Shown here: piece after piece, positions 5,733 to 48,193 of the stretch
How positions within the stretch are numbered: position 1 is the stretch's first letter
Layout: the number at the start of each line of letters is the position of its first letter
Origin: Craspedostauros australis
Lineage: Eukaryota
Direction of reading: 5' to 3'
Length of the DNA stretch: 48,534 nt
NCBI GenBank assembly: GCA_030167865.1
Contig: JALAGF010003324.1
Location: forward strand, 1-48,534
The notes under the pieces: model-generated
Told to the model about the DNA's origin: nothing
Databases searched by the model: none
The model's input: only the letters and a program-made list of their open reading frames with translations
Made by a program: the position numbers and the translations under genes

Positions 5733-6840
5733 GCTTCGCGAGGTTGGCGTCGGTGGTACGCAATCAGAGATGTAAGCCAGGGGATTTGGATGTGATTGGA
5801 GATGCTGGATGTATTGAAGACTATGATCATAGATCAGCGGAGAGAGAAAGTATGGGACAAGGATGGGAGCGAGCGCATCAGAGATGGGGCTCCGGTCCAT
5901 GTTGCTGCCGACGACGCAAAGCGCCAACGATCCTTCGGTGCGCACGACAACTGCGACGTGTGCGGAACAAGATCCGAACGGTACGTTCGTGACTGAACGG
6001 TTTGACAATACAGATAGTGACTGGATTACGGTCTACCATATCCCCAGCCTTGAATGTGCAGAATCTGACGCTAGGGAGCAGCGGCTACCTCCACCAAAAC
6101 AAGAAAGTAAACGAGAAAGAAAAAAGTCACAACCTCCCTCCACACAGAAGCACACACAGAGACGAAGAGAGAAACCCGCCCAAATCGTATTGGACGAAAT
6201 GAAATGGGACGCTGCGCGACACGTCTCGTGGCCATGTTCCGAGACGTTGTTTCTCTCTTTGCTCCCATGAAAGTTCTCCAGTGGGCTTGCTTTCTTGGAT
6301 CACATTGCCGACCCGTTTCTGCTCGACGAGTCTGCTCAGCTGGTAAACTGGGCGACTCCAACGTTGCTAGCATACGATACTATCCCTTTACGACCCACTC
6401 GTCTGGTGCAGCCGTGTATTATCCTCGTAGCGCACAACTACAACTATCTCCATAGGTGCTTGTGGCAACAATCCATACTCTCCAGACAGCTCAACCAGAG
6501 AGTCCACGAGAGCACTGTGAAACGCGCATTGATTCATCAGTCTGTCAGGTTCCGCAAGATCGCGGACATTTGGAGACCAATTCCGAGCTGGAGAGGCAAA
6601 ACCGGCCGAAAGATAGATACGGAGGTTGGCGCGAAGCCTTGTTGTGGAGGAAGACACCAAACGCATCATAGCGCAACATAACGCAACATAACGCAACGCA
6701 ACGCATCACGGAATCCCGAGACGGAGGGGAGCGCATAGTCCTCGTTCCAGTAACCTTGCGTTCCCAGAGGTGGTCACACAGCCAGCAATCACAAGAGCAG
6801 AAGCAGAAGCAGCTGGAGCAGCAGCTGCGGCACCGCCACG

Positions 6841-9800: not shown

Positions 9801-12800
9801 CGCCACTCCAGCACAACCGCAGACCGATTACGACGTGACGTTGAAAACAGATGAATCCACGAAGGACACAGCAAAAATGACTCAGGATTTGCGGTTGGGT
9901 TCCGTCGTAATCCCTCTCACGAGCCTCCCACTTGGCATGGCCATGGATGGCAATCAGACCGCGCGCGTGGAACAATGGTACCCAGTCGATCATCTGGAGT
10001 CCTCCGAGTTTGGTGGCAAGAAGCCCAGGGTGTTGTTGGAAATCTCCTTTGCGTCTCCAGACAACCTCGATGACAGCGAGGATGAGATGGATCCAGATGA
10101 TCTGCTGCATGAAAGCAACTCCAGCCTGTCCTTCAATGCCTCCAAAACAATGGCCATGATGCAAGCCTCCTTCTCGAGACGCGCCTCCCTTGATGCCCTC
10201 AACTCGCGGCAAGAGGAAGCTGGCGAATCCAAACACCACCAACAGCAGCAGCAACAGCAAGACACGAAGAAGAAAAAGAAGATAAGCGATCCCGTGCTGC
10301 AACCAGGTGTCGTTGATTTCATATCTGTCATCGGTCCAAAGGATTTGGGCAATCTGGTGACCGAAGCATCGAACACGGGCGACGGATGGATCGAGAACTG
10401 CCATCCCAAATCCGTCATCCTGGAGCAGTTCCCACCCAGCGACGAATACTACCAATCCATCAAACGTTCCGCGACGTTGCAGAATATGACGGAATGGTTC
10501 TCCTTTCCCGAAGGCATGCGATTGTGGCGTGGGCCGAATCCACCGACGCATTCCGATTTGAACCTCAAGCGATTCTCAGCGTCGTCGCCGCCCAACATCA
10601 CGAGTTCTACGACGGCGGCCTTCGATGCGTGTTTGAATTGCACGTCGGCCTTCACCTGGTTCCTCATTGCTTCCAATTCTGATGAATACGGCTCGTCGTT
10701 GGTCAAGACGTACGGTGGCGTGATTCGGTTCTACGTCCCAGCCCCCGTCGATCCCAAAGAGTACACTCTCGCCAAGGATGGCATGTCGAATGGCAGCCGG
10801 TTGTGGGTACCCATGGCAATCTGCCTCACAACCAACCTGCCGATTGTTGGTGTCTTGGAGTCCATATTGCTCCGCCTATGTGAAGAGCTGACCAAAGACA
10901 ACGGCAACATCGGCGGCGCCGATGGTAATAACAACAGCAACAGCGTGATGGAGAACATCCACAAGCAGCTCGGCAAGCTGATCTTGAATTTCCAAAAACC
11001 CATTCCTGGCGCCGTCAACTGCTCAGTTCCCTTTTTGAAGGGCGAACGATTCCTGCTGTCGTTGCCACCGACAAATGGACTGCCAGCACTGCCTCACGGA
11101 CATGCTGTCATTTCGGTCTGCCGATTGCTGGGTGCGGAGGGATTGAACTTCATGCTAGCTGCCATACTCACAGAATCCAAGGTCTTGATCCATGCACATG
11201 ATCTATCCGACGTGGTAATGGCGGCCGAGGTGGTCATGGCACTTTGCTACCCATTCACATGGTCCTTCCCGTACATTCCTATCCTGCCCATTGACATGCT
11301 GGAGTTCGTGGAGGCGCCGCTGTCATACATCCTGGGTGTTCCTACCTCCAGCATCAAGCATGTGGATCCGAACTCGTTGGAAGATGTGGTGGTGATCGAT
11401 CTGGACAACGGATTCTCGACAACGAGCCAGCTGGACATGAAGAAACGCGGGGTCGTGCCCAACCCGAAAAACCCAACACCACTGCCGGCGTCGGTGGCTG
11501 CGAGCTTATCCAAATCGCTGCACAAACTCCTGCGAGCCGAAGAACTGGTGGAGGAAGAATACGCAGACGACTTTCAGCACACAAATCCGCGGTTGGAGAC
11601 GGAGAGCTTGGCCGAACGGGAATTCCGGATCGCGGTGGCTGTGCAAATCAGCAGTCTGCTGCGCGGCTATCAGGAATGCACGGGGCCAGTCTTCAACCGA
11701 GATAAATTTTTGAAGATCACACCGTCCGCGTACGAAGAGCGCAGCAAAGATGGCATGCCACCGTCCTCGTCGTCATCCTCGTCACGCGGTGGGTCGTCGT
11801 CAGCTTCGTTGCAACCATCACCACGTGCCAAACGATTTCTGTCGACGCTGGTCAGCGGACAGAACTTCCAGCAGCTGTTGGATTTCAACGAGAATCTGGG
11901 ATTCTTTCACGAGATCATGGAGGCGTTGGATGATACCGACAAGCAACCGCTGCGATCCTCGTCGGGGATGGACACCAGTGTTTCCAAGTTGGAACGCACG
12001 CTAAATCAACTGAACAAGGCATTGCAAAAGATTGAAGACAAGATCCCAACGTACCGCGTGGATACCAACTTGGAAATGGATTCGGATGATGAAGACGGAT
12101 TCTTGCTGCTCCACGAAGACCCATTTGATGATTTTACCGATTTCGATGTATTCAGCGCACCCTTCCAAGCCTCCGAAAGCAGCAAACATGCAAACAACGG
12201 CGATGGCACGTCCTCCTTCACCGAGCGCATCCTGAAACGGAGCATGAAGCTGCCAGAGCTGCCAGCTGATACGCACGATCCTGTGGGGATGATGGAATAC
12301 GAACGAATTTCCAAGGATACCCTGAAGGAACATCCGTGGGAATATCAACGATTGTTCGACATTCCGTTCAACACCAGCGCCAGCAATGGCGATGCCAACG
12401 ATGCTGACAACTCGCACACCAACGACACTGGCAAAGAGCCCTTCATTGCCATCACCGAGAAGGTTCGACTCAAGGATGCCATCGGCGAACGTCGGTATCG
12501 CGCCTGGAAACTTGCGCAAGATCGCAAACTGGAAGGCATGAACGAGTTCGACAAGGTCATAGCTGACGACTTGACGTCCGGCAAGCAAGGCACGTCGTTG
12601 GACTTGGCGAGTTTGGTGACCTCGGCCACTTCGGACATGTCGGATTCCATGTCGACCATGGGATCCACCCAGCCGGATCTGGCGTCAGGTCTCGATCCAC
12701 AGAAGCAGCGCGTGATCGATGCGAAGAATCGAGACATCCTGCGACGGTGCCTGGACAAGGCGCAGCGCAGCCATGAGATGTTCGGGGGCGGCGGCACGGG

Positions 12801-15438
12801 CATGCGTATGAGCACCGATGAAGATGGTGTGGAGATGGTTGCACTCAACGGATCAGAGATAAATGGTGAGCAGGAAAAGCCCAATCCGTTCATGGAGAAT
12901 GGGCGCGATCTGATGGCAGAGGCAGAAAAGGCACTCATCCACCCGTCGGCACAGCGGTTCCTCCTGTCTATTCTGAAGCAACGTTCGCGACTGCAAAATG
13001 AGCGCGGACGGCAGAATCGACGTGAATCGAATCTTTCGGGCCAATCGTACTCCCGTTTGGAGCAGGTGGCGTTCGACTGCCTGATTCGACTGAGCTGTTC
13101 CATGCTGGATTCCTGCATGGAGCACAATGATTACGAACCCGCATACCGGCTGCTGACCTACACTGCAGGGTTCATTATGATTATTGAAGAAGTGGTGCCC
13201 ATGTCTGATGTCCGTGGCGGCGTCGATGATGACGACAGCGAAGAAGTCGATGACTCGGAGCACGAAACCATCACAAGGCACGTTGTCACGATGACGTCGC
13301 GGATCGGCCTGCATCCCATCTTTGCCGATCTTGCGTTGTGGACGAAGGTGATGGAGGTCCATTTGAAGGATCGCCTGAGCGAACGCAAGTCCGACTCAGG
13401 AGATGAAACCGATGACGAAGAGGCAGACGCCATCGAACACGATTCCGCCGTCGCCACGCTGTACGAAATGCTCGGGTACGGCATTCCCGGAGAGGAGCTG
13501 TCCAAGTTCGCCATGCGCATCAGCGAGAAGCATGGTTGGTTCTGCGATGACCGTGGCAAACAGCTGCTGATGCTTGCGAGGCGTATCAGCGTCCGAAGAG
13601 AGCAGAGCAACGCCAACCACGGCACGGGTGGTGGAGGCGAAGAGCTCGCGATGATTCGGAAGGGCCAGGAAGGCGGTCACCTTCGCAGCAGCTCGCACGA
13701 GAAGATCGATCTTTCCAGCATCTTCCACGCCTGGTCTGACATCGGCTGGTGTCACCCAGCCGCACCGTCGAAGCTGCATGCCAACCAAGCGACTTGCATT
13801 GATTCTGCCGAATCCGAATACATGAAACGATCCCCAGTCACCGCCCTGGCTTCATTCGGCTCTTCAGTCGTCGTGACGGGAGGTTTGGATGGGAGCGTGT
13901 TCCTCGCCCACAGCATTTCAGATAGCAACGCAAAGGACGGCACGACCCCGTCTGTCCGAGGCATCCACTTGGATTGGGGCAGCGCGAGTCGAGCGACATC
14001 TGGTTTGTCGTCGGACGGTGTCTACGGTGTCGGCGCGGTGAGTTGCCTGGCAGCTTGCATGGGACAAGCCAACATGTCTGCGGCAAAACCATCCATGAAG
14101 GATACGCTGGACAGCGCGCAGCCGGCGACACCGCAGGATGACATGCTCGCCATGATGGAAGGGAGCCGTGTGGTTGCCGGAACGACGGCGGGCGATCTTC
14201 GAGTTTGGTCCGTGAAAGATGTCTACGCGGCCATCGCTCTGGCGAAGCTGGAAGAAGAAGGCAGTATGTCTGCATCAGTCGATGCCGTTGGCATGGCGGG
14301 AGGCATGGTAGGACTGGCAGGAGGGGCCGGCAGCACAAGCAGCGCCCTGAACCGTCTGAAGGTCTCCCTGCGCGGGAGAGCGTTGTCCGGCCATCGCGGT
14401 GGCGTAACTTGCGTCGACGTCCCACCTCGGTTCTACCGACCAGATTCGCTCATCACGGGCGGCGCGGATGGATTGATCAAGCTCTGGTCCTTGCGTTCCC
14501 CCACAGGCGGACGCCGTGTTTCGAGCGATGCGGAGGCTGCGGGCATGAATAGCAGCACCGGGACAGCCAGTTCCTCCACCACTCCGGCACGCGGACGTGG
14601 TGGAGATGCGCTAAATTCATTCAGCGGTCACAAAGGACGCGTGCTATGCGTGCAGACAGCGTGGCATGGCGATCGGCTCCTCAGCGGTGGAGCAGACCGG
14701 ACGTTGCGTGTTTGGGATGTGGCGAATCAAAACGGCAAACCGATCCACACTCTCGCAGGCCACTTTGGCTGGGTGACCCACGTCAAGTACTGGGGACCCA
14801 ACACCATCGTGTCAGCCTCCACCGACCGATCCGTCGCGTTGTGGGACGCGCGCGTTCAGAACTCTCCGCTGTTCGTTCTGCGTTACCATCAATCGCCCGT
14901 GTCAGACCTTCTGGTCGGCACACGCACGGATCCTCTGATGACAAGCGCAGGCGCGGATGGCAGCATTGCGACGTGGGATTTCCGGTCCTTGTCCGGTGCC
15001 GCGTCCATGGCCAACAGCAGCAGCAGCGGCAATGCTGGTGGTGGCAACAGCAACAAGGCGGGCGCCAAGCAGTGCCAAATGGTCCGCGCACCCGCCGCCA
15101 CCATGCTGCACCACGGCAAGAAGGGACGCGACGGCAAGGCCGCCAACTCGGTGCTACTTGCGCGGGGTGTGGTATCCCGTGCCAATACTCTGCTGAGCAT
15201 CGGTTCGGATGCCATCATCCGTGAATGGGAGCATGGTACCGGGCAGTTGGTGGAGGAATCGCCCACGGGCCACTGCGACGTCATCTCGTCCTTCCGTTCG
15301 TTTGGAATGGATGGTGATGACGGCGACCATTCGTCCACCATCGGTACTGCCGCTGCAGAGCAGGAGACGATGGAGGGAACCATCACGGCATCTTGGGATG
15401 GTACTATCCGAATGAGGCGGCTGCTCCGTGATGGATGA
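6841..15438 (+). CDS. Large intronless C2 + uDENN/DENN/dDENN + helical + WD40 protein (putative Rab GEF, SCD1-like architecture), 2865 aa
   Basis: C2-like segments WSVRVFVVSAVDLP...LRLGSVVIPLTSL...EQWYPV. DENN motifs FSFPEG, WVPMAICLTT, ILTESKVLIH, LCYPFTWSFPYIPILP...FVEAPLSYILGV and SLLRGYQ...FNRDKFL. C-terminal WD40 repeats (GHRGGVTCV...ITGGADGLIKLWS; GHKGRVLCV...LSGGADRTLRVWD; GHFGWVTHV...SASTDRSVALWD). Confidence 0.92.
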   Translation: MPSNQQAPLSREERTRERRARREAIDSAASAVSASTPSRAHTTPVRLTAEERAMLTVSSTSTSAGTRRGGGDRDRDRERERERRREERRQRRNSGDTLYSGSTADASISNATNASGRTSATDYDNGGAPISTSEDRAQRYLQRRRDREAAAAAASGASSPPSSAADRRSGYPRSRRASGGGSIPHSDAHSHSDDHHRYSSRRSHDDDTHASASSGYSARRSGRDRDHHHRDRDHHRDRDRERGDGESAYSGASSAAGSSRRRGGAGEPRPSRRHASDSGTSDAGHSERPRRRHTSGDGGLTGTATAGQPNAASLSHEDEIERIRELRERRLRGERGSTEAPRRAHTDVHDHQRYSSRSRTRSRDRLDPSRARSRDRLSSSNHREERGSSRDRLAPSRDDRGKSRERILSDRERARMHRRERLEGGAPRERSTRGNRTAGISSASSVTSSGPTSKMHRSSSVDGLQEHGKDMRRPSSSRELRTDQRRSRRHHAMDDDDRRGSDHRQPSSSTSLTSTGSNVSNQQHQGGGGATYDDYTMELSSSRHEETKRSSYLEEREARRQKRRQSLSSLNDTASTTTATTSASSTLNNSNHEPDEPSSGNSSELARIRQRREAQRAALRKQRGSNKQNSTPDRRARAEAQKARTVRRQKSVTAATPLRGAMPDPSKGLLPQSVSSPTTEVPPTHVTKTEAATSRTALASANAPTTALGDTKDKTIPEITTADSSFDIPDLEFSDAEEDPDAIDLDQSGWSVRVFVVSAVDLPIHVVPNTPLCPVLKFGLVKMPSGNAEELHDRLGDSSVAALRTARVRSTTSKILSKRDNGSVDFHQELRWDRIRHPMNTSLCVEISAQAVRSPANHKESPQAILSTPLTMEPSKESTNDLGGGMKRSASSGAMKRSKSVDGFTSGDSGRRGVSRNASGSDDDMNNNNAPGGLRALWRKATNRKAAELEAANAAAAVARMLVEQDAPPGAATGTEPSSAAATARAIATPAQPQTDYDVTLKTDESTKDTAKMTQDLRLGSVVIPLTSLPLGMAMDGNQTARVEQWYPVDHLESSEFGGKKPRVLLEISFASPDNLDDSEDEMDPDDLLHESNSSLSFNASKTMAMMQASFSRRASLDALNSRQEEAGESKHHQQQQQQQDTKKKKKISDPVLQPGVVDFISVIGPKDLGNLVTEASNTGDGWIENCHPKSVILEQFPPSDEYYQSIKRSATLQNMTEWFSFPEGMRLWRGPNPPTHSDLNLKRFSASSPPNITSSTTAAFDACLNCTSAFTWFLIASNSDEYGSSLVKTYGGVIRFYVPAPVDPKEYTLAKDGMSNGSRLWVPMAICLTTNLPIVGVLESILLRLCEELTKDNGNIGGADGNNNSNSVMENIHKQLGKLILNFQKPIPGAVNCSVPFLKGERFLLSLPPTNGLPALPHGHAVISVCRLLGAEGLNFMLAAILTESKVLIHAHDLSDVVMAAEVVMALCYPFTWSFPYIPILPIDMLEFVEAPLSYILGVPTSSIKHVDPNSLEDVVVIDLDNGFSTTSQLDMKKRGVVPNPKNPTPLPASVAASLSKSLHKLLRAEELVEEEYADDFQHTNPRLETESLAEREFRIAVAVQISSLLRGYQECTGPVFNRDKFLKITPSAYEERSKDGMPPSSSSSSSRGGSSSASLQPSPRAKRFLSTLVSGQNFQQLLDFNENLGFFHEIMEALDDTDKQPLRSSSGMDTSVSKLERTLNQLNKALQKIEDKIPTYRVDTNLEMDSDDEDGFLLLHEDPFDDFTDFDVFSAPFQASESSKHANNGDGTSSFTERILKRSMKLPELPADTHDPVGMMEYERISKDTLKEHPWEYQRLFDIPFNTSASNGDANDADNSHTNDTGKEPFIAITEKVRLKDAIGERRYRAWKLAQDRKLEGMNEFDKVIADDLTSGKQGTSLDLASLVTSATSDMSDSMSTMGSTQPDLASGLDPQKQRVIDAKNRDILRRCLDKAQRSHEMFGGGGTGMRMSTDEDGVEMVALNGSEINGEQEKPNPFMENGRDLMAEAEKALIHPSAQRFLLSILKQRSRLQNERGRQNRRESNLSGQSYSRLEQVAFDCLIRLSCSMLDSCMEHNDYEPAYRLLTYTAGFIMIIEEVVPMSDVRGGVDDDDSEEVDDSEHETITRHVVTMTSRIGLHPIFADLALWTKVMEVHLKDRLSERKSDSGDETDDEEADAIEHDSAVATLYEMLGYGIPGEELSKFAMRISEKHGWFCDDRGKQLLMLARRISVRREQSNANHGTGGGGEELAMIRKGQEGGHLRSSSHEKIDLSSIFHAWSDIGWCHPAAPSKLHANQATCIDSAESEYMKRSPVTALASFGSSVVVTGGLDGSVFLAHSISDSNAKDGTTPSVRGIHLDWGSASRATSGLSSDGVYGVGAVSCLAACMGQANMSAAKPSMKDTLDSAQPATPQDDMLAMMEGSRVVAGTTAGDLRVWSVKDVYAAIALAKLEEEGSMSASVDAVGMAGGMVGLAGGAGSTSSALNRLKVSLRGRALSGHRGGVTCVDVPPRFYRPDSLITGGADGLIKLWSLRSPTGGRRVSSDAEAAGMNSSTGTASSSTTPARGRGGDALNSFSGHKGRVLCVQTAWHGDRLLSGGADRTLRVWDVANQNGKPIHTLAGHFGWVTHVKYWGPNTIVSASTDRSVALWDARVQNSPLFVLRYHQSPVSDLLVGTRTDPLMTSAGADGSIATWDFRSLSGAASMANSSSSGNAGGGNSNKAGAKQCQMVRAPAATMLHHGKKGRDGKAANSVLLARGVVSRANTLLSIGSDAIIREWEHGTGQLVEESPTGHCDVISSFRSFGMDGDDGDHSSTIGTAAAEQETMEGTITASWDGTIRMRRLLRDG

Positions 15439-15987: not shown

Positions 15988-17051
15988 CTAAAACCGCCCG
16001 CCGCCTGTTGATTTGTACAGATCATTCAACGCCTGCGCCTTTTGTGAATTGGGGTTCTTTTGCTGCTGCTGCTCCATCTCCGCCTGCTTGACGTGGATGG
16101 CCATTTGCTGAGCATACTCCTGAAAGCTGACGAAGCCGTCCTTGTCGTGGTCGAAGTCCTCGAAGACGGGGTAATCCTTCTCGGTGAGACCGGGGTAATT
16201 GGCCAAATAATTCTGCACGTACATGTTAAACTCGGCACGGCTGATGCGATCGTCTCCGTCGAGGTCGGGTTGCTTGAACTCGTCGTAATCGCGCTGCAGT
16301 TTCTCGTACTCTGCCTGATCCTTGGTCGATCGCAGTGCCTCCTGGAGCTTTTCGGCCTCGAGGACGAGCTGCTGGTTCTGTTCGGAGAGTTTGTAGACGT
16401 CGTTGTAGTATTGGGTGTAGAGCTGTTTCTGCTCCTTCTGGTGGCGGACCTTCATGCGCTTCGCGATACGTCCGGAATGGATCTTGGCACCGCAGAAGTA
16501 GGAGATGGCACCGACGGCAGCCATCTGGCCCCAGCCGAATCCTCCAGCGGCGGGGGCGCTGTCGTGCGTTGTTGTGCGAAGTTGATAGGTGGGAGATCGA
16601 TGGATCGGTTGGATCGGCGTGTGGAAGAGTGAGTAGGTGAGTGGGTGGGTCGGTAGGTTTGCATGGGGGAATCGAGAAGGGAAACAAAACACAGCAGTTT
16701 ATCACACACAACGATGGCGACTGACCGCAATTGATTGCGACGGATGACAATTGATGGCGATAACCAGGCATGGATGGAATCACAAGTAGTGGAAAGTGCA
16801 ACACAGCACAGTACAGCACATCGCAAAGATATGTGAGCATGAGAATGAGAAACGTACGCCTTGGCCTCCTGCCGATCGGCATAATCCTGATAGAGATTGT
16901 CCTGACCGTAGTCGTTGCCGTAGTCCTGGTAATCATTGGCATTGCCACTACCGTAGTCACCATAGTCGCCATAGTCCTGATCGTACTGCGCGGCGACTGA
17001 TATCGCTGCGGTCAGCACCGTCAACAGCTTGGCGGGGGTTGTGAACTTCAT
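15988..17051 (-). CDS. Spliced secretory/membrane protein with an Asp-Tyr-rich N-terminal region, coiled coil and two EF-hands (254 aa); exons 17051-16858 and 16558-15988
   Basis: Signal peptide MKFTTPAKLLTVLTAAISVAA. The phase-2 intron 16857-16559 (GC|GTACGT ... CACGACAG|C) joins two ORF-track ORFs in frame. Canonical EF loops are DLDGDDRISRAE and DHDKDGFVSFQE. Confidence 0.85.
16559..16857 (-). other. GT-AG intron (299 nt) of the EF-hand gene
   Basis: Donor GTACGT at 16857 and acceptor CAG at 16561-16559 on the minus strand; removing the intron restores the reading frame. Confidence 0.8.
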
Positions 17052-17138
17052 GTCTGTCTGTTCCTTTGTTCCTTTGTTCCTTTGTGCGAATGGTGGATGA
17101 ATGGATGGATTGATTCCTTGATGCGGTCGCTTGATGCG

Positions 17139-17174
17139 GTCGCTTGATGCGGTCGCTTGATGCGGCTGCTTGAG
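17139..17174. repeat. Short tandem repeat (TGATGCGGTCGCT, about 3 copies) upstream of the EF-hand gene start
   Basis: Directly visible 13-mer repeats; a TGTTCCTT x3 run lies nearby at about 17058-17084. Confidence 0.8.
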
Positions 17175-17760
17175 GTGTACTCAAGAGGATCAACGGATTG
17201 GTGGATGGATCGACAGATCAGAGAGCTGTCTTCACACAAAATGATGCAGATCGAGACGGTGCCAAGTTGAATGGGTGATTTCAATGTGAAGATTCCTCTT
17301 TGGGTGAACGACACTTTGCGATCAAGAGATGGAGATGGAGATGAAGATGATGGTGGAGATGTTGCTGTGATGACAGCAGTTTGGAAGATCGGCACGTCGT
17401 TTGCACGCACAAATACACCGTCAACACATTCCCAATTTTACACGAACACGTACACGTACGCGTTGTTGATGTGTTGATGCCTTTGTGGCTTCTTTGGTCA
17501 GTCGTTTTGATGGGTTGAGTCGCGTTCCGCGTGGAAGTTTTCCTCGTCCAAAGCAAAAGGAAGCTATTTTTGTACTTTGTTATTTGCCGTGACTGGGTGT
17601 TCGTCAACGTGTCGCCATTTGCGGATCGTTTGTCGTTTGTTTTGCACGCGCCGCACCTCATGCGGCTTTGCTCACAAAATCCATCACATGTCCACACAAT
17701 GGTGAATGGTTCCCGACTGTCGGTCAGTATGAATGTGAGCTTCGGTGGGCGAGGGCGATG

Positions 17761-17805
17761 CAGTAACAGTAGCAGTAGCAGTAGCAGTAGCAGTAGCAGT
17801 AGCAG
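17761..17805. repeat. (AGTAGC)n microsatellite
   Basis: Directly visible hexamer repeat. Confidence 0.9.
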
Positions 17806-18124
17806 TGGATGTGAATGCAATGGCGATTCCACAACAGCATCCTTGTCTGTTCTAGATTGGCGATCGGTCACGGGATCATCGCTTTTTTGTTGTTGAAATC
17901 ACCCGCAGCAACAGCCACAGCCACAATCGCATCCGCATTCATGTCAACATCAACAACAACAGCAACAACAAAACTACCTTGCACTATAATCTCGCCATGC
18001 CTCCTGCCTTCCCCCGCTGGTGAATAGCAGTGCCACACCAACTTTCCCATACTTTCCCACATCCATCTTTGCAACTGCAAACATACCGATAGGCAACACC
18101 AAGACCACACATGCACCTTCCGTC

Positions 18125-19367: not shown

Positions 19368-20618
19368 TGGATTGGGTCCCGCTAAAACATCTTGGCAGAC
19401 ATGGCGCATCCTCTGCCACGACGACGGCTTTCGTTCGCCATCATTCCAATAGACATCGTATCGTACTTGCACGAGTAGTGGCGACGGAAAAGTCACCTAT
19501 GCTTCGGGGAGGTTTAAATCCTGTTGGTTTGTGTTGGTTACGTAAACACACACACACGTACTCTTCTGTGTACATAATGTACACGCAACATAGCTAATCC
19601 ACAATGCGCATACTTGATCATGATCCTTCATGCTTTGTGTCGAACTACTATACTCTGACTCTAGTATGTACGTATGATGTCAAGAGGCACACATGACACC
19701 ACTAATCTTTCAGCACAACTGCTTCTCGCAACGAAAGACCACGTGATGCCATACAACTCCATCAACCCAACGGACCAATCGGCATCCTCCTTACTCTTTC
19801 GATCGTCATGGCTACTCGACGCCCATCATCGTAATGTTGACGTTGAACCAGGCCAACCAACCAGTCAACCACACTCGCTCTTCGGGTGTGCCTCAGTTGC
19901 AGAGGATCAAGCAGAGAGATGATGGAGCTGCTGCTCACAACAGGAGCATAGTGTTGTGCAAAATGTGCTCTGCTTCAAATTTGTGAGCGATCACGTTTTG
20001 AATTGCTCGAGACTTTTCGAGTTGTATTGGTAACGGTGACTTACTGGTGCCTCTGATTGTGTCACTGTCGTTTTGATGTCTCATGTCATACTAAAATATT
20101 TCTAACGCCACGAAATCGTCTTGGGACTGTCCAGCAGACGTGACCCGGCGGTGGACGAAAGAACAGTAAAATCGACGACCATGTCACCAAATTCGATCAT
20201 TCTTCGGTCAATCTCCGTCATGCAAAATTTCGCTGTTCCTTTTGTTGTGTTGTCTCGCGCTTCGTTGACTAACGGGCCGAATTTCTCTTCCCTGCCTTCG
20301 CCAGATTTGTTGCTGATGCTGCTTGATCTAACGATGTTGCCATCTTCAATTCGATCGTGCTTTGTGATCATGGCATCGAGTGTATTTTTGTTGGAGGCAA
20401 AGGCTTCCTTTCCACCTTGATCTCAGCAACAAGACGAACAGTGGTTGTCTTGACGATGTGAGCAATTTTACGGCTCAAGTTGCACATTCACACATTCACA
20501 CATTCACACGCTCGTGTGTTCGTTCTTGCATTATTCATTCTCATCACCACTTTCACCATCACTGATCAGTTGCAACAGCAGCAGCACAGTACTCCATTAT
20601 CGATTGAACGACAACGCC

Positions 20619-21909
20619 ATGAGGATTACTGCCACTACACTCGTCGTCACCCTTTGGGCTGCAGCCTGTTTCGCTCACCCAACGTCTGCATACGATTATT
20701 CAGACTATCACGACGACCCGTCTGATGAAGACGATGAACACATCGACATGGACTTCGTGGTGTATCGTCGCCGCGCGAAGAAGAGTTCAAGTTCGTCATC
20801 GTCGTCTTCATCTGCCTCGGAACCAACGTCGATGCCAACATCAATGCCGACTTCAGCGCCCACAGCACTACCGTCAGCATCGCCATCGTCGAATCCAACG
20901 GCAAGCATTAGTCCATCGATCCCTCCATCTGCGGCGCCATCTTCTGTGCCAACAAGAAGCAGTGCACCATCCGCGGCACCGTCCGGCTCACCGTCGAATA
21001 CTCCATCGGTGACGCCTTCAGGCACGCCATCGACGCCACCTTCGGTGTCACCGTCAGGTCAACCGTCGGTATCACCGTCGACTTCTCCATCCCAGGTGCC
21101 AACGAGGAGTATGCAGCCGTCCATGAACCCTTCTGTGGCGCCTTCTTCCGTGCCGACAACGAGTATAATGCCATCGACAGTGCCTTCCAGTACTCCTTCG
21201 GGAGTTCCATCGTTGGCTCCATCATCCACGCCATCTGCAGTGCCGACAAAGTCATCGAAGAGTGTGAAGGCAATCAAAGCACCGAAGTCGCCGCGAGCGA
21301 CACGACCTCCAAGGGCCACGAAATCGCCAAAGAGCGAACAGAGCACGAAGGCCCCGAGTGCAACGTCGACTTCGTCTGCAAGTACGAAGGCTCCCAGTGT
21401 CAAATCGTCTTCGTCTGCAAGCACGAAGGCCCCCAGTGTCAAATCGTCTTCCTCTGCGAGTACGAAGGCACCGAGCGCATCGTCCAGCTCCGACAAGGCC
21501 CCCAAGTCCGCAAAGGTACGTGCCCATGGCTCGTCTCTGTTGTACTCGTACTGTGTTGTACCTTGTCTTGTTTGCTTGTTCACATCATGGTCTTGTATGC
21601 TGTATGCTATTTGCTATTTGCTGTTGTTGCGACTCGTGATCAGCGACACTAACATGCTTCTTGCTGCTGCTGCTGCTGCTGCACTGTCATTCCATCTTGC
21701 TTCATATGTGTGCATAGCTGCCAAGCCTCAAGAGCGCGAAGAGACATCTTAATGCTGGAGATTCCACTTCAGAGGAGGGGGAGGAGGAAGAAGAGGATCA
21801 GAGCGACAACATCAAAGGAGAGGAAAATATGGAGGACGAAGAGGAAGATGCAAACGACGATGAAGAAGAGGAAGAAGAAGACTCAGAAGAAGAGACGAGC
21901 GAAAAATGA
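20619..21909 (+). CDS. Secreted silaffin-like / mucin-like precursor (362 aa); exons 20619-21515 and 21718-21909
   Basis: Signal peptide MRITATTLVVTLWAAACFAHPTSA, then an acidic segment, RRR, PSxxPS repeats, KxxK motifs and four copies of a 39-nt/13-aa STKAPS repeat. The phase-0 intron is AAG|GTACGT (21516) ... CACTAAC branch (21647-21653) ... CATAG|CTG (21717). Exon 2 reads LPSLKSAKRHLNAGDSTSEEGEEEEEDQSD...EEETSEK-stop. Confidence 0.82.
21342..21497 (+). repeat. Coding tandem repeat, 39-nt unit (STKAPSVKSSSSA-type), 4 copies
   Basis: Units start at 21342, 21381, 21420 and 21459 (AGYACGAAGGC...). Confidence 0.9.
21516..21717 (+). other. GT-AG intron (202 nt) of the silaffin-like gene
   Basis: GTACGT donor, T-rich body, CACTAAC branch point and TAG acceptor; the read-through translation abruptly changes composition at this point. 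Confidence 0.8.
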
Positions 21910-22352
21910 GCATGGTAACAACAGTCAGGGGAAGCGTCATAGCGGATGCAGGATGTGAAACGGGAGTGCTGCAAACCGCCCAACGACGAAGAATATGTTA
22001 CTATTGTATTATGATGTAAACGTACGTACACGTTCTCAAAGAGACAGAGAGACAGAAACAATGCAGTGCTTGTTGCTATGTATAATATACTCTCGAGAGA
22101 GTATGCAGCTACAAGGGTATACCTCCACGCAACGTACCCATCGTATATATGTATTGATGATAGCAGATGAGAGAATGAAATCACTGATCCCAATCACAGC
22201 TGACGATTGCGTTCGGCAGAACCTGAGAAAACACGCCGACATGGCTATCACTGCGCACACGCAAGAAAAGAAAGAAGTCGGTTGCTTCCATTTTCTCTAT
22301 CGTATCGTTCGTTTGTTCCTTTGTCAAAATTCAATTTCGGATCTATTGTATT

Positions 22353-25300
22353 CTATTGCCGTACCTTGTTCTGCCGTTCAAACTGCCACGTCGCTGCCTT
22401 TTGTGCCATGGTCCCGGCCGTTTGGACCGTCTCCTTCGACCACCAGGCAGTGTCATCGTCGCCATCGTGCGGCGTTGCGGCATCAGGTCTTGACGATGAC
22501 GGTGACGAGAGCATCCATTCCGACGTATGACGGAATCGAATCACGATCCCTCGAGCCAACTCCACGCGCTCGTTGTGGATAGTGGAGTTGGATTGTCGCA
22601 CCAGCATGATCTGACGGATCAGTCGCCAGTACGTGCGCGCCAGCGGGTACAGGATATCCCAATTGGCCCATGCCTGACCAGTCGTGATGTTGTGATGACG
22701 GAAGAGTTCATCCTGAGTGGGGAATGACCCCCATTCCAACAACCGTGTGCTGTTGTGCAGGAGATCCATCACATGGGTGGAATCGGTGAAGATATCGATG
22801 TGTACCGTCGTATTGGACAAGGATGACGCCGTGGGTTGCGACGCCTGGGTAGGATTCTTCGTCAAAGTGGCGGTATCTTGCGAACGTTGGAACAGCAGAA
22901 TTTCCATCACGATGCGCAGCACCTCTCGACAGACATACAAACTGCACCGGTTCCGTGATGGGCGTCGATAAGGATATCGTGAGAGCAGAACTCCGCTGGA
23001 GAAATCAGTGCCAATTGTTGGCCCGGCGGTGTTGTTTGCCTTCCACATGGGGATGTCGTACAGCATTTCGTTCATCTTCCAAATGCTCTTGGCCGCGGTC
23101 TGCAACAACCTACCACGTATCTGTGGTACGTAGACGCAGAGTCCGCCCGTTGGTGGGGCATCCAAGGATGGATTCTGAAAGCTACGTCCGGTGCACAGGA
23201 TGGCCAGATACGCGCTGTCCTTGTTGTCGCTTTGGCGCCGTCGCTGTCCGGATAGCGAATGCCGGCGCAGCGTATCGAAGAGGTCCAACAAGTTGGTCTC
23301 GTTGGGGACGTAATTCTTACGGATGTCGTCCAGGAATGCTTGTCGTATAGATTCGGTTTTCTGTTCTCGGAGCCGATCCGACGAGATCTCGATCTTGGCT
23401 TCTGATTGGGCTAGTCGCTTCTTTGATGCCGCCGGCGCCGTCTTTTTTGCTGCGGTGGCTGCCATGTACTCGTACCGCACCTTGCCCTTGTAGACCAGCT
23501 GATTACGGATAACTCGGTACATGTAAGCAACGGAAGTGCCCGCACTTTTAGCGGCCTCATCTACGTTGGGAAAGACTTCCAACTGTGTCTTATCCTCGAC
23601 GTTGGTGGCCACAACTCGGCGTTTCACTCGATACCGCTGGGCTCTGATACCGCTAGTGGTGGATAACTCGATGATGGTGGCGTTACGACTTTCGTAACTG
23701 TCGATCCTATCCTGGAGGGACCGCTTGCTGACCATGAGGAGGGATGGGTTGGACACGATCCATTTGCGCAGCGTCTTGCGACACGGCGCGTGATCTTCCA
23801 GCAGGTCAAGTTTGGGCTGTAGAGATCCCTGGAGACTGTGCGTCAGCACCAACGGCGCCTTGAGCGTCATGTGGGCCAGTTGCGCCGTGGACAAGCCGAC
23901 GCGGTCACGCAAGTACAGCGTTTTAGGCCGTAGGTTGGATCGGTGGTTGAATCGCAACAACCCACCGCGACGGATCAGTTCTCCCACCTGCGGCAGAGAC
24001 AAGCCCAGCGTTTGATGGAAGAAGTGCGACATGGGCTTGATTTTGCGTTCCAAAGACGCTCCCAGGATGGATGGATTGGCTTTGAGCATGTCCACAAGGT
24101 CTTGGCGCTCTATTTTCAAGTCGTCTCGCAGATATCGTAGCTTGGGTCTGAGATTGAGTTCGACGCTGTAATGCAGGGTGGCTGGATACTCGAGGACCGA
24201 TCGCTGAATATTCGGTAGGGTCATGCCGACTTCGTCGCGCAAAAATGAGACGCGCTCGTGCAATTTTCCGACCGCCACGCCCAGCACTTGCGGATCTTGC
24301 ACGACGAGAGCGTGCATGTCTGGACTGGACAGCCGCAGGATGGATTGTACAGCATCCAAATGCCGTTGCAGGTGCCGCAACGTGTAGGTGCTGACGCGAT
24401 TGTGGATCTTGAGGATGGAATGCAGCTCGTGGTTGGTGAGCTGCAGCCTCATACGAAGGTAGGTGATGGCCTGCTCGTTGAGGACCCTGCGCATGGGACC
24501 GTTTCCCACAAAGTCCAAGCCGGGCTCAAGATCGAAGGACAGCAAGGATAGGGAGAAGGCGTCCAGCAGGATGCGTATCTGATGCCACGACAAGTGGAGC
24601 GTGCGCAGATAGGCGACAGCGTAGACGTCTTTTGGATCTGATCCAATGAGGTGGCCGTTGACTTCCCGCTCGACTTCCGCGAGTAGGTTCATGGTGATGG
24701 AGTTGACGGAGGCGAAGAAGGACAAGGATGGCTTCTGCGATCTGGTGGCGGTTGGATCCAGCGATAGGAAGTAGGGCAAATCCGACAGAATCCGAACCAC
24801 CTGCGGTGGGGTCAGCCCCACACCCCAACCTTCGGAAAGCTGCTTGGGCCAATCCACTCCTGTCACGGACTCTTCGTCGAGATGTGGTGATTGCGGCGAG
24901 ACGAGGAAGAGGATCCTTTCCTGCATCCAGCCCCGGTCCTTCTTCGGGAGCCGCGAGAGGTACTCCGCATTGCTGGTAACATCACTGGCACCATCGGCGT
25001 TGGTGAAGTGCTCATTCAGAGCGGTCATGACGATGCCGTACATCCGCACCGTGAGTGGTTGAAGAGTTCCTCTCCCGGAGAACCAGACCTTGTTGGTCGT
25101 GTTATACCAACCAACATCCTTGAGTCCAATGCCGGCAACGAAGTGTGGGACGTCCCCGACAGTGGCATCTGTGGAGGTTCGCTCATCTCCGTTCGTTGAT
25201 TCTGGTACCGTGATCGGGAGACCGACAGCGTGAGGATAGTGATGACGTGCCTGATCAAGCCAGCGGAAGCTTCGCAGCACCGTGGTTTGATTGGTCTGCG

Positions 25301-25724
25301 AGATATCGGCCTCGACCACCACGTGCCGATGGAAGTTCTTGGAATAGTAACAGTACTGCCATCTCGTGTCTGCCGTCGTCGCCATTGGCGGTGCCTCCAC
25401 GTGTGCGTCCTTTGTTGCAACCTGTGTTCTCAATTGCGTTTGTGCTGGTGCTGGTGCGGAGGCAGAAGGATCTTCACGCGTCTGCGGCTGCGCAGATGCC
25501 GGCGTGAATGTCTGCGTCTGGTTGCTCTGCTGCTGAATGTGGAACAGCGCCGGTTTCGCCATCTCCGCTGATCGTGCTCGCTGCAGGACATCCGTCGAAG
25601 CTGAGGATGCTGCGAAAGTTGCCGATGGTGATGTGAGGAGAACCGTTGGCGCAACATCGCGTTTCATCACGAAACCGTCAACGTTCCAAAGCAGCAGCGC
25701 CGAGAATACTTGGAGAACCCACAT
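22353..25724 (-). CDS. mTERF-family protein, probably plastid-targeted, with C-terminal NUMOD1-like and degenerate RNase H-like regions (1123 aa from ATG 25724)
   Basis: Bipartite-type presequence MWVLQVFSALLLWNVDG|FVMK. mTERF repeats include YPATLHYSVELNLRPKLRYLRDDL, NPSILGASLERKIKPMSHFF and APLVLTHSLQGSLQPKLDLL. Further motifs are LEVFPNVDEAAKSAG and HIDIFTDSTHV...ANWDIL. Confidence 0.85.
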   Translation of the reverse strand: MWVLQVFSALLLWNVDGFVMKRDVAPTVLLTSPSATFAASSASTDVLQRARSAEMAKPALFHIQQQSNQTQTFTPASAQPQTREDPSASAPAPAQTQLRTQVATKDAHVEAPPMATTADTRWQYCYYSKNFHRHVVVEADISQTNQTTVLRSFRWLDQARHHYPHAVGLPITVPESTNGDERTSTDATVGDVPHFVAGIGLKDVGWYNTTNKVWFSGRGTLQPLTVRMYGIVMTALNEHFTNADGASDVTSNAEYLSRLPKKDRGWMQERILFLVSPQSPHLDEESVTGVDWPKQLSEGWGVGLTPPQVVRILSDLPYFLSLDPTATRSQKPSLSFFASVNSITMNLLAEVEREVNGHLIGSDPKDVYAVAYLRTLHLSWHQIRILLDAFSLSLLSFDLEPGLDFVGNGPMRRVLNEQAITYLRMRLQLTNHELHSILKIHNRVSTYTLRHLQRHLDAVQSILRLSSPDMHALVVQDPQVLGVAVGKLHERVSFLRDEVGMTLPNIQRSVLEYPATLHYSVELNLRPKLRYLRDDLKIERQDLVDMLKANPSILGASLERKIKPMSHFFHQTLGLSLPQVGELIRRGGLLRFNHRSNLRPKTLYLRDRVGLSTAQLAHMTLKAPLVLTHSLQGSLQPKLDLLEDHAPCRKTLRKWIVSNPSLLMVSKRSLQDRIDSYESRNATIIELSTTSGIRAQRYRVKRRVVATNVEDKTQLEVFPNVDEAAKSAGTSVAYMYRVIRNQLVYKGKVRYEYMAATAAKKTAPAASKKRLAQSEAKIEISSDRLREQKTESIRQAFLDDIRKNYVPNETNLLDLFDTLRRHSLSGQRRRQSDNKDSAYLAILCTGRSFQNPSLDAPPTGGLCVYVPQIRGRLLQTAAKSIWKMNEMLYDIPMWKANNTAGPTIGTDFSSGVLLSRYPYRRPSRNRCSLYVCREVLRIVMEILLFQRSQDTATLTKNPTQASQPTASSLSNTTVHIDIFTDSTHVMDLLHNSTRLLEWGSFPTQDELFRHHNITTGQAWANWDILYPLARTYWRLIRQIMLVRQSNSTIHNERVELARGIVIRFRHTSEWMLSSPSSSRPDAATPHDGDDDTAWWSKETVQTAGTMAQKAATWQFERQNKVRQ

Positions 25725-26668
25725 GACCGACAAGCTCCTTCGTTTCAGGAGGGCAGCAGCTGCTCTGCAGATTGTATGCACTCTACTACCGTGGAATCCA
25801 GCCCGGTCTGCTTCTCTCACTACGCTACAATACGGCGATCTGCTTGTGCTTTCTGCAACCCTCTTCTTCGCCCAATGCAGCTCAGTTCACGGCTCGATGA
25901 CACTCACGGCCAACAGTCAACAGTCAACAGTCACCCCAATGCCACTTCTCTGCTTCCTCCTTGTTGCATTGTCGTTGTGTCTCTCTCTATCCCTCTATCG
26001 CTCTATCGCTTGTATTATTATATGTATTCTGTGTGTGCGTGCGAAAGGGTTGCGATCTCTACCCGTGAGGCTTCAGGATCACCTGCTCTCTCTGATTCAC
26101 CTCGATCCTTCTTCTGTTCCTGTGTCAGAATGTTGTGACCGGCAGAACCGCGAACTCTTTTCAGAACAACTGGAGGCTTCGTTCCCTCTGAGATTGCGCG
26201 AGCACTTGGCGTGGAGAACGAGTGTCCTTGGACATTTGTGCGTGCATCGATCGTGTCTGTTGATGTTGCTTGCGTGTGTGACACGCGAACTCTTCGTTTT
26301 GGATTTGCGTTCGATTGTCTGTCATGACGTCACCCTTCAACTGCCAGCAACGCAGATAAACGCTAACTCTGCGCATCGTATTCGTATGAGTCAAACACGA
26401 CAAAATCGTTCTTCGTGATCCAAAACGAACCACACAGGAAACTGTTGAATCTCACAACCCTCAACCAAGAGATCGTCACCAAACAGAAGCACGCACTAAC
26501 GTGGACAGGGCGCGTTGACGATGACCATGACGGCGACGGAGTCAAGCTGTTGCCGTTGCCCATCGACATTGACAACAACATCGACATCAATCAACCGGAT
26601 GTCGCACATCAACAACCAAATCTGCAGCCAGATCGATTCGAGGAGGATAGAATCGGCGACTCAGCAAC

Positions 26669-28147
26669 ATGAGACGAGATGACTCGAACAAAATGAACTT
26701 CGTTTCCGTTGGCTTCTTCACGGTCTTTGCTATCGCGGTCCTGCGACTGGTGTTTTGGTACCATGATCACCGCTCAGCAAAACGGAGGATACGTCGCACC
26801 AACCCAACCAGATTCGCCTTCTTCCATCCATACTGCAGTGGTGGAGGTGGCGGAGAGCGGGTGCTCTGGAAGATGATCCAGATCTTGCAACGGCACAACA
26901 AGGAATGTACCATCTACACCATCGATCCGCCAGGGGAGATCGATGAACATCAATTACGTGCGGATGCCATGCGACGATTCGACGTCAAGGTTCCCCAACC
27001 GGTCAAGCTCGTCTCCTTGCATCGGCATAGCCATTTTCTCGAACCCAAGCCCTTCCTGTCCCTCGTCCGCGAATCCATCGGTACCATGCAGTTGGCCCAT
27101 CATGCCTTGCAAGAGAATGATGACTTCGACGTGTTCTTGGACACCACCGGGTGCGCTTTCACCTTTTGGGTCGTGCGGTTCTGGTTCCATCGCAAAAAAC
27201 GCTCAGACAAACACACAGTCCAACCCTGGATCGTCCCGTACGTCCATTATCCCACCATCTCGACTGACATGATGCAATGGGAGGAAACGGCACATCCGGA
27301 TCGTGCCTGGTGGAAGACGATGCTCAAGCTGCGGTACTATCGACTCTTTGCCTGGCTTTACGGATGGGTGGGAGAGTCGGCCGATCTGGTCCTCGTCAAC
27401 TCCACGTGGACGTTCAATCACATTGATGCCCTGTGGAATGTGTCATCGTCTCACGGCGCCGCCTCAGGCCAATCAATCGACATTGTGTATCCACCCTGCC
27501 GCGTACCACCTGTCGATCCCGCATTGAGCTCATCCAAGCGTGACTGCGCCATCGTCAGCATCGGTCAGTTCCGACCGGAAAAGAATCACAAGCTGCAAGT
27601 TCTCTCCCTGCGAAGGCTGGTGGATATGCTCAGGAGCAGCAAATCACCGGAGGCCCGATCCATCATTCCCGATCTCAAGCTCATTCTCATTGGCAGCTGC
27701 CGCAACGACGACGACCGCGGACGCGTCACCGAGCTCAAATCCATCGTCGCTGATCACGACCTCAGAGATCATGTCGAGTTCCGCATCAATCCACCCTACG
27801 CCGAGCTCAAGCAATGCATCGACAGCTCCAGCATCGGCATCCACACCATGAGACAGGAGCACTTCGGCATCGGCATCGTGGAATTGATGGCATCCGGTCT
27901 CCTGGTCGTCGCGCACGATTCCGGAGGACCCAAAACGGATATCGTCAAGCCACACGAAACAGGATTCCTGGCAACGACGGTGGATCAGTACGCGGAAGCA
28001 ATGCGCGAAGCGCTGACAATGAGCCCAAACCAACAACGCCACATGCGCCAAAGTGCCCAAGAATCGGCGCAAAGGTTCTCGGATGCCATGTTTGATGAAC
28101 GGTTGGAACGAAGTCTGGCCAACCTGTTGGTGCAAGATGACACCTGA
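26669..28147 (+). CDS. ALG11: GDP-Man:Man3GlcNAc2-PP-dolichol alpha-1,2-mannosyltransferase (GT4), 492 aa
   Basis: N-terminal TM followed by the ALG11 signatures AFFHPYCSGGGGGERVLW, DTTGCAFT, YVHYPTISTDM, VNSTWT, SIGQFRPEKNH and EHFGIGIVELMASG...HDSGGP. Confidence 0.96.
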   Translation: MRRDDSNKMNFVSVGFFTVFAIAVLRLVFWYHDHRSAKRRIRRTNPTRFAFFHPYCSGGGGGERVLWKMIQILQRHNKECTIYTIDPPGEIDEHQLRADAMRRFDVKVPQPVKLVSLHRHSHFLEPKPFLSLVRESIGTMQLAHHALQENDDFDVFLDTTGCAFTFWVVRFWFHRKKRSDKHTVQPWIVPYVHYPTISTDMMQWEETAHPDRAWWKTMLKLRYYRLFAWLYGWVGESADLVLVNSTWTFNHIDALWNVSSSHGAASGQSIDIVYPPCRVPPVDPALSSSKRDCAIVSIGQFRPEKNHKLQVLSLRRLVDMLRSSKSPEARSIIPDLKLILIGSCRNDDDRGRVTELKSIVADHDLRDHVEFRINPPYAELKQCIDSSSIGIHTMRQEHFGIGIVELMASGLLVVAHDSGGPKTDIVKPHETGFLATTVDQYAEAMREALTMSPNQQRHMRQSAQESAQRFSDAMFDERLERSLANLLVQDDT

Positions 28148-47466: not shown

Positions 47467-48193
47467 TCATCATCACGACACAGCACAACTCGACACAACT
47501 CGACACAATCCATTATAATACATTGCATTGCATGATGATATTGTGCATGTTATGGTGTTGCAGTATGACCGTAGCGATCGTGCCTTGATTGGTAGTCTAC
47601 CTCTAATCAACAATCAACAACATCTATCGAGGTCGTATTTGCCATCCCATGCATGCAACAGGTCTCTGGAGAGCAAGAGAGAGCCTCATGGAATGGAACA
47701 GCGGTGCCTTCGAAGAACGTTGTCGCCACAGGATCCATCCTCTTGCAAACATGCACCAGGGCGAGCGCCGAAGAAATCTTCTGGGTATCCCTTTACGACC
47801 TATCGCCCAATAATTGGGCGATAAACAAATCGAAATCAGTTATTCAAACTTTTGACCCCAACGCCTACGAGTGGGAACCTCTTTTCTTTACATATTATTA
47901 ATCTTCTCGAGCTCCTCTTTCCAACCATGCTATCACATTTATATGTCTGTTACTGTCTTTAGGTTGATATAGTTGCCTAAAGTACTCGTGAATCGATTTT
48001 GAGCTGCGGGACTGTNGCTCATTCCATTGGCGAGACGCGAATCGCCAAATTGGCGAGGTCGCATTTTCGTTTTTCGAATCCGCTTCCTTGCCAACACCCA
48101 CACGTCATGCCTTTGTTGTTACGTATCAGCATGCCTGTTGCTACTAATGTGCTGCTTGCGGGTTGTGGTGCCTGCTTCTCTTACCGTGCAACG

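Follow-up and report, generated by a model that had tools for sequence, protein, structure and literature searches.

In the 48,534-nucleotide stretch of Craspedostauros australis DNA analysed here (contig JALAGF010003324.1; the whole stretch is called the window below), positions 20619-21909 of the forward strand carry what we tentatively read as a two-exon gene of a raphid pennate diatom, encoding a secreted, intrinsically disordered, silaffin-like wall glycoprotein without sequence relatives. That a real secreted low-complexity protein is encoded in this frame is very probable, and the label 'silaffin-like' is justified as a compositional class assignment; an association of the protein with biosilica is a reasonable suggestion that we advance with some reserve. 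A preliminary description of the locus had gone further and proposed that the precursor carries its own silacidin-like peptide, to be released at an RXL site. While a new silaffin-like cell-wall glycoprotein is plausible, the idea of an own silacidin is unsupported.

Gene structure and reading frame

The start codon is the first ATG past the in-frame stop that precedes position 20454, and the frame of the gene is the longest one open at the locus (432 codons from stop to stop). Decisive for the reality of this frame is a 39-nucleotide (nt) tandem repeat within exon 1 (3.2 copies of a unit of 13 amino acids (aa), 21345-21469): copies 2 and 3 (21384 and 21423) differ at four sites, all of which are synonymous third positions in frame 0, and five of the eight sites that differ between copies 1 and 2 are third positions as well. 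A perfect (CACATTCA)x3.4 microsatellite (20483-20509) precedes the start codon by about 110 nt and would belong to the promoter or the 5′ untranslated region (UTR).

Without splicing, the open reading frame (ORF) continues through the T-rich stretch 21516-21717 and stops at 21750-52, which is why a plain ORF misses the acidic tail, as the preliminary description had rightly pointed out. A splice that joins 21515 to 21718 is probable, judging from the signals and the composition of the sequence. The donor (AAG/GTACGT at 21516) falls exactly on a codon boundary and, since exon 1 consists of 299 whole codons, the predicted intron is of phase 0. It contains a branch-like CACTAAC (21647-21653) and a zone of 72 nt free of AG (21644-21715), and the first AG afterwards, the acceptor at 21716-17, gives an in-frame exon 2; the acceptor cannot lie further 5′ because the exon-2 frame meets an in-frame stop, TAG, at 21715-17. 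Across the junction the translation remains in phase, reading KSAK/LPSLKSAKRHL and then the 52-residue acidic tail.

The content of guanine and cytosine (GC) is 46.5% in the predicted intron compared to 57% in exon 1. A codon log-odds model was derived from seven ORFs of the window with Pfam support, whose own in-frame windows have a mean of 0.344 and a 5th percentile of 0.020 bits/codon. In this model, every frame of the predicted intron scores below zero (-0.196, -0.428 and -0.546 bits/codon), and exon 2 reaches +0.585 bits/codon in its own frame with negative values in the other two. Tandem arrays point in the same direction: all seven in the proposed exons have a period divisible by 3 (12, 12 and 39; 3, 3, 9 and 12), and two of the three in the predicted intron do not (16, 7 and 3). 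A single intron of ~200 nt is ordinary for a pennate diatom, given that introns of Phaeodactylum tricornutum average 142 bp and that 33% of its genes have one intron, according to the gene-structure data of PMC5859163. No split domain that could serve as a control intron was found among 85 further ORFs of the window scanned with Pfam, and the serine acetyltransferase gene of the window is complete within one ORF, as judged by alignment to solved structures.

Several observations weigh against this splice and would instead fit a transcript in which 21516-21717 is kept, always or sometimes, so that a 377-aa membrane-anchored product arises and RHL and the acidic tail are never translated. The exon-1 frame is open throughout the predicted intron and up to 21750-52; composition alone leaves the exon-2 frame open in 13% of shuffles, and one more frame is likewise free of stops in that exon. 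Moreover, read-through yields two hydrophobic segments (KD19 hydropathy above 1.6, windows at aa 310-334 and 346-350), after which the product closes with a short KPQEREETS. A signal peptide combined with a C-terminal membrane helix is a layout shared by the silicanin/SiMat7-like and SAP families, and intron retention is described as prominent in P. tricornutum (PMC5859163). Even so, we regard retention, the main structural alternative, as unlikely. Openness of the stretch is reached by 28% of dinucleotide shuffles (chance 0.28), its read-through translation scores -0.153 bits/codon and hence lies under the 5th percentile of coding windows, and the GC content falls from 57% in exon 1 to 46.5%. 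The 7-nt and 16-nt tandem repeats and the six Cys in 25 residues look like translated T/G-rich noncoding DNA, a Pfam scan of the read-through product detected no conserved cytoplasmic domain, and the splice signals are canonical. Far less credible still, and in our judgement close to negligible, is the notion that the real coding sequence lies in another frame or on the other strand, with the gene frame as its out-of-frame shadow. Frame +2 is open over 246 codons of the plus strand (20912-21652) and in the PS region obtains a codon score of +0.546 versus -0.259 for the gene frame, but this advantage is an artefact: C occupies 61% of the second codon positions in exon 1, and, read in frame +2, the C of these NCN codons falls on the third position. 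In addition, no ORF of at least 40 aa beginning with ATG, GTG or TTG appears in the ORF list for this part of frame +2, its open stretch has no Pfam match, the antisense ORFs are short (105-174 aa) and likewise without Pfam families (zero families in a scan of four alternative-frame and antisense ORFs), and the differences between the repeat copies are synonymous in frame 0 only. Frame +2 was thus rejected as the true frame on the grounds of the NCN artefact and of these synonymous differences. For automated annotation, a start-less frame of 246 codons that outscores the true one could mislead gene finders.

The residues and coordinates of the preliminary description (ATG, exons, RRR, lysine run and RHL) were exact throughout; the segments are collected in Table 1.

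Table 1. Predicted gene and segments of its product, in positions of the window
Feature	Position	Strand	Basis or content
Whole gene, spliced (exon 1 + exon 2)	20619-21909	+	362 aa predicted product
Exon 1	20619-21515	+	299 codons, ATG at 20619
Signal-peptide-like N-terminus, aa 1-24	20619-20690	+	translation, hydropathy
Asp-rich pro-region, aa 25-49, and RRR, aa 50-52 (20766-20774)	20691-20774	+	translation
AKK and poly-Ser run, aa 53-68	20775-20822	+	translation
P[ST]xx tetrapeptide array, aa 69-208 (140 aa, 33 units)	20823-21242	+	repeat spacing
Lys/Ser-rich basic block, exon-1 part, aa 209-299	21243-21515	+	composition, motifs, repeat
Predicted phase-0 intron, 202 nt	21516-21717	+	GT..AG, composition, codon score
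Exon 2	21718-21909	+	63 codons and TGA (21907-21909)
Start of exon 2, LPSLKSAK then RHL	21718-21750	+	translation
Acidic tail, aa 311-362, and TGA (21907-21909)	21751-21909	+	composition, codon score

A Lys/Ser-rich block of silaffin-like composition

The Lys/Ser-rich block spans aa 209-307 when both exons are taken together, and the charge of aa 206-310 is +20. Published properties of silica and mucilage proteins are used here and below as the cited sources give them. The screen for silaffin-like proteins of Scheffel et al., as quoted in PMC3478156, asks for a signal peptide for the endoplasmic reticulum (ER) and for no less than 18% Ser and 10% Lys per 100 aa. With 18 Lys and 32 Ser in its best 100-aa window (aa 208-307), the block passes this composition rule, and nowhere else in the six frames of the 48.5-kb window is the rule satisfied.

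The silaffin-like character that the preliminary description had assigned to this region on account of a five-lysine run and further KxxK motifs was borne out by composition and motif content alike. Compared with 20000 shuffles of the block that keep its composition, the eight KxxK motifs exceed chance (P=0.0017), so that the block displays the clustered KxxK motifs of silaffins and cingulins. Four of them are chained in KSSKSVKAIKAPK (aa 211-223, 21249-21287), where five Lys follow each other at period 3 (P=0.0075). Only one of the eight, KSSK, has S or G at the X positions as in the stricter Thalassiosira pseudonana KXXK screen (PMC5501833), and the others use V, A, I or P. A pentalysine cluster, which helps to target silaffins to silica, is defined as five non-consecutive Lys in 12-14 aa (PMC5501833, PMC9650480). 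With five non-consecutive Lys in 13 residues, KSSKSVKAIKAPK formally conforms to this definition as a putative targeting element; the cluster that the preliminary description had recognised is therefore present, but it does not rise above chance and constitutes weak evidence because 21% of the block shuffles contain at least one (P=0.21).

The tetrapeptide array

Upstream of the block, the region described before as 'PSxxPS repeats' is indeed repetitive, although its exact make-up is different: it is an array of strict P[ST]xx tetrapeptides in which 29 of the 33 spacings between its 34 P[ST] starts are exactly 4, the remaining four units being PTxSxx hexapeptides. Shuffled sequences have on average 1.48 and at most 8 spacings of 4, and none of 20000 reaches 29. 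Pfam sees the array weakly as a PT repeat (E=8.6e-4, 19.2 bits, under the cut-off of 26.2). PT-type repeats are listed for 14 silaffin-like or KXXK proteins of T. pseudonana, TpSil1 among them (PMC5501833). Consecutive P-S/T-x-x tetrapeptides are also a feature of TLP-4-like and proline-, threonine- and serine-rich (PTS) glycoproteins. In the tetrapeptide of the TLP-4 glycofibril, glycans sit on dihydroxyproline and on the adjacent Ser/Thr, and the authors link the pattern to diatom extracellular polymeric substances (EPS) and dihydroxyproline (PMC11725842); by this likeness, the array here is predicted to be glycosylated.

The N-terminus and the acidic flanks

The protein starts with MR and a hydrophobic core of 17 residues (aa 3-19, with a mean Kyte-Doolittle hydropathy of 1.83), followed by the small residues T-S-A at -3/-1 before Tyr25, which suggests a signal peptide that would be cleaved in front of this Tyr. 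Downstream, aa 25-48 contain nine Asp and two Glu in 24 residues and have a net charge of -11. Two other destinations were considered. Plastid targeting via the Tyr at +1 was set aside in view of the charge of the 24 residues that follow, as a strongly acidic stretch past the putative cut speaks against a plastid transit peptide. A histone-H1-like nuclear protein, which KAPK/KSPK motifs together with an acidic tail might bring to mind, was ruled out by the signal-peptide-like start.

At the other end of the protein, the RHL tripeptide (aa 308-310, 21742-21750) is the only RxL and is placed exactly where the basic block turns into the acidic tail (+20 to -29). The tail consists of 23 Glu, 8 Asp and 5 Ser among its 52 residues (44%, 15% and 10%; 60% Glu/Asp) and has a net charge of -29. 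Of the earlier statement that it is dominated by E/D/S, the acidic part holds, with Glu dominant, whereas Ser contributes five residues only. The coding sequence of the tail harbours four tandem arrays, namely 3- to 12-nt GAR arrays with periods that are all multiples of 3; at the protein level, the tail has no peptide-length repeats and is present in a single copy.

Sequence relatives and genomic context

By sequence, and within the collections searched, the protein is an orphan. A search of exon 1 against 5.8 billion clusters returned 117 matches, every alignment running through the P[ST] repeat; the best match covers 46% of the query at 39% identity. The 13 match sequences that were inspected are otherwise unrelated and have folded or Cys-rich domains, and seven of the 117 contain a K/S window. 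An Atlas search gave no usable match for exon 1 and, for aa 200-299, a best value of 0.78 with a viral glycoprotein G cluster, under the lead threshold. Similarity to a named silaffin was absent among the source-named matches of exon 1 (117) and those of the Lys block. Silaffins are poorly conserved in sequence, however, and the missing similarity therefore weighs little.

The window is eukaryotic, with 54.5% GC and long uninterrupted ORFs, and represents an intron-poor region of a pennate diatom. The ALG11 gene (26651-28147) is closest to raphid pennate diatoms: its best match is an MMETSP transcript (58% identity), and identities to a metagenome-assembled genome of Bacillariaceae, Cylindrotheca closterium, Nitzschia inconspicua and Pseudo-nitzschia multistriata are 55%, 54%, 51% and 49%, respectively. 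Neither ALG11 nor exon 1 (20619-21515) found itself in the 5.8-billion-cluster collection; together with the 58% of the best ALG11 relative, this suggests a source lineage without close annotated relatives there. Other neighbours encode leucine-rich repeat (LRR) proteins, a DENN/WD40 ORF, an mTERF protein, an ABC1 kinase and the serine acetyltransferase. None of the neighbouring genes in the window is cell-wall related, so that no gene cluster is present.

Convergent with the gene, an mTERF-domain ORF of 1177 codons occupies 22353-25886 on the minus strand. As the two stop codons are only 443 nt apart (21909-22353), the 3′ UTRs of both genes must either be short or run into each other. Elsewhere in the window, an uninterrupted ORF of 2894 codons (6754-15438, plus strand), unusually long for a single exon, has a DENN domain at aa 1351-1552 and C-terminal WD40 repeats, and an ORF at 37214-37738 (plus strand) clearly matches DUF6824 (E=6.3e-22). 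Overlapping ORFs in different frames at 15991-17898 (minus strand), one of them with an EF-hand pair (E=1.2e-8), probably belong to a multi-exon gene. A weak match of ORF 48003-48530 to the phage gp5 trimerisation repeat (E=2.9e-4, 21.4 bits versus a cut-off of 30.9) is probably an effect of low complexity; the single N of the window is at 48016.

Silica, silacidin or mucilage

Taken together, the case for a silaffin-like wall protein has to be balanced against a number of findings that pull the other way. Passing the composition screen does not in itself show silica association, and as many as 89 T. pseudonana genes pass it (PMC3478156). The protein has no RXL after the signal peptide: its 28-residue pro-region ends in RRR-A, while most biosilica proteins have a short pro-region that ends in RXL (PMC4557024, PMC5647440, PMC5525289). 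The chance occurrence of a pentalysine cluster belongs here as well, as does that of the RHL site, since one RxL arises in 12.5% of shuffles (P=0.125). Searches for relatives brought no relief: a script scan of the 117 exon-1 matches found none with a tail of at least 40% Asp+Glu and none that shares the layout, the Lys block yielded two matches among 1.84 billion representatives, both of them unrelated acidic-repeat proteins, and none of the four candidates for the first 60 residues came in at E<=10. Lastly, PTS-rich secreted proteins are typical of diatom adhesive mucilage (bioRxiv 10.1101/2023.03.06.531300).

How far the tail can be taken as a silica component is best judged against the proposal that cleavage at RHL frees it as the equivalent of a silacidin, one precursor then supplying polycation and polyanion alike. 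In silaffins, silacidins, cingulins and frustulins, RXL is considered to mark where processing takes place, silacidins are rich in Asp/Glu (PMC4557024), and in the frustule protein Tp12162 a C-terminal RXL near the end is treated as a likely cleavage site; with RHL lying precisely at the switch of charge, cleavage there is conceivable, if doubtful. A silacidin-like action of the released tail, and with it the proposal as a whole, appears improbable. Silacidins are released from a highly repetitive precursor that is cut at RXL into several acidic peptides, and they have numerous Ser whose phosphorylation is essential for activity (PMC4557024). Here, a single RxL precedes a single tail that reaches 60% Asp+Glu and has five Ser in 52 residues, and because it is non-repetitive and only 10% Ser, the tail is unlike silacidins. 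The chance level of a lone RxL adds to this, and no conserved counterpart in other diatoms, which the preliminary description had suggested looking for, emerged among the 117 exon-1 matches. In the account that PMC4557024 gives of the silaffin precursor Sil1p, the function of the acidic domain is given as unknown and no role in silica is mentioned, and consequently a pro-domain or charge-masking role of the tail is at least as likely. A different view dispenses with silica embedding altogether: the protein could be a mucin-like PTS glycoprotein that is secreted to the cell surface, the capsule or adhesive mucilage. Its functional part would be the glycosylated P[ST]xx rod, the Lys block would attach to acidic polysaccharides or surfaces, and the acidic ends would adjust solubility. 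The 33-unit array fits the TLP-4 tetrapeptide with its link to EPS and dihydroxyproline (PMC11725842), PTS repeats account for 23-70% of three Craspedostauros trail proteins (bioRxiv 10.1101/2023.03.06.531300), all 117 database matches run via the repeat, the named ones stemming from the benthic pennates Seminavis and Cylindrotheca, and by its ALG11 the source groups with raphid pennates. We consider this view the main functional alternative, though the less likely one. No CAA, GDPH, vWA or Cys-rich domain, the marks of trail proteins, was detected, Pfam finding only the sub-threshold PT repeat; the array measures 140 aa compared to more than 600 aa in the representative glycofibril candidates of PMC11725842; and periodic KxxK motifs (P=0.0017) are associated with silaffins and cingulins. 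A silaffin-like wall glycoprotein with masking acidic flanks is our preferred reading, and the following model is built on it.

Proposed mechanism and implications

The model starts from the reading frame and the segment compositions and extrapolates from there. The signal peptide would carry the protein into the ER, where or after which the 33 P[ST]xx units may become hydroxylated and O-glycosylated, forming a stiff, glycan-coated rod; by analogy with TLP-4, at 12.4 A per unit, this rod would be ~40 nm long. In the Lys/Ser block, phosphorylation of Ser and modification of the KxxK lysines could create a module that binds silica or targets the protein to it, beginning with the pentalysine-type run. 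The Asp-rich stretch (-11) and the Glu-rich tail (-29) would mainly mask the basic block (+20) during transport, and both acidic flanks may be trimmed, at RRR and RHL, respectively. A bolder version, which we think has little chance of being right, pictures the protein as a block polyampholyte whose tail stays attached or is freed locally: glycan rod, polycationic KxxK block and polyanionic poly-Glu would self-assemble through their own charge blocks, in place of the phosphate-dependent assembly of silaffins, and one gene would provide both charge partners that template pennate silica.

At present, the gene is an annotation-level candidate rather than a discovery. If its product turns out to be silica-associated, it would offer a pennate example of a TLP-4-type rod, a KxxK silica-binding block and acidic flanks in one chain, and thereby an easy way to find out if encoded acidic segments shield a polycationic block or act as its partners. 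If it is a mucilage protein, it would show that screening by Lys/Ser composition picks up false positives in benthic diatoms. The silaffins that have been characterised biochemically are mostly from Cylindrotheca fusiformis and T. pseudonana (PMC4557024). As silaffin-like proteins are recognised by composition and not by homology, they have to be screened for afresh in each lineage.

Comparison with known silica and mucilage proteins

The closest parallel in overall layout is Sil1p of C. fusiformis, a raphid pennate and hence a member of the same broad group as the nearest relatives of the window. Sil1p is likewise one secreted precursor that combines a signal peptide, an acidic domain, a basic Lys/Ser domain and RXL-type motifs (PMC4557024). 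Both charges in one precursor are therefore a variation and not a first. The variation lies in the arrangement: the acidic domain of Sil1p is N-terminal (aa 20-107) and its basic part is made of seven repeats that each end in RRIL or RRNL (PMC4557024), whereas the protein described here has acidic parts on both flanks, a single RxL and, unlike Sil1p, a long P[ST]xx array between the acidic parts.

With the silaffin-like proteins (SFLPs) and KXXK proteins of T. pseudonana, such as TpSil1 and TpSil3, the protein shares the Ser/Lys composition, KxxK motifs in clusters, a stretch of pentalysine type, one or more RXL and, by prediction, the signal peptide (PMC5501833, PMC3478156, PMC9650480), membership of this class being defined by composition and not by homology. 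Unlike T. pseudonana SFLPs, it has no N-terminal RXL, and most of its KxxK motifs deviate from the S or G at X that the screen in that species needs. Full-text literature searches found no description of a Glu-rich C-terminal tail for silaffin-like proteins. The silacidins of T. pseudonana have in common with it an Asp/Glu-rich peptide downstream of RXL in a secreted precursor (PMC4557024).

Likeness to SAP, silicanin and SiMat7-like proteins exists only with the intron kept, in the form of a signal peptide, a Ser-rich luminal part and C-terminal hydrophobic segments (PMC5647440, PMC5525289, PMC5501833). The spliced protein has no hydropathy window above 1.6 outside its N-terminus, and the hydrophobic read-through stretch scores as noncoding. 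Missing, too, are the N-terminal RXL domain and the conserved cytoplasmic or NQ-rich domain of the SAP and silicanin types; conversely, TpSAPs are described in PMC5647440 as lacking KXXK motifs.

On the mucilage side, the adhesive-trail proteins CaTrailin4 and Ca5609 possess PTS-rich domains like the array here (bioRxiv 10.1101/2023.03.06.531300). They are megadalton-sized and contain CAA/GDPH domains, and PT was the only family that Pfam returned for exon 1, for exon 2 and for the read-through product, with no CAA (PF20597) or GDPH match, the existence of a Pfam model for GDPH being unconfirmed. TLP-4 and the array have the P-S/T-x-x periodicity in common (PMC11725842), and what sets the protein apart from both TLP-4 and the trail proteins is that its array is joined to a KxxK block.

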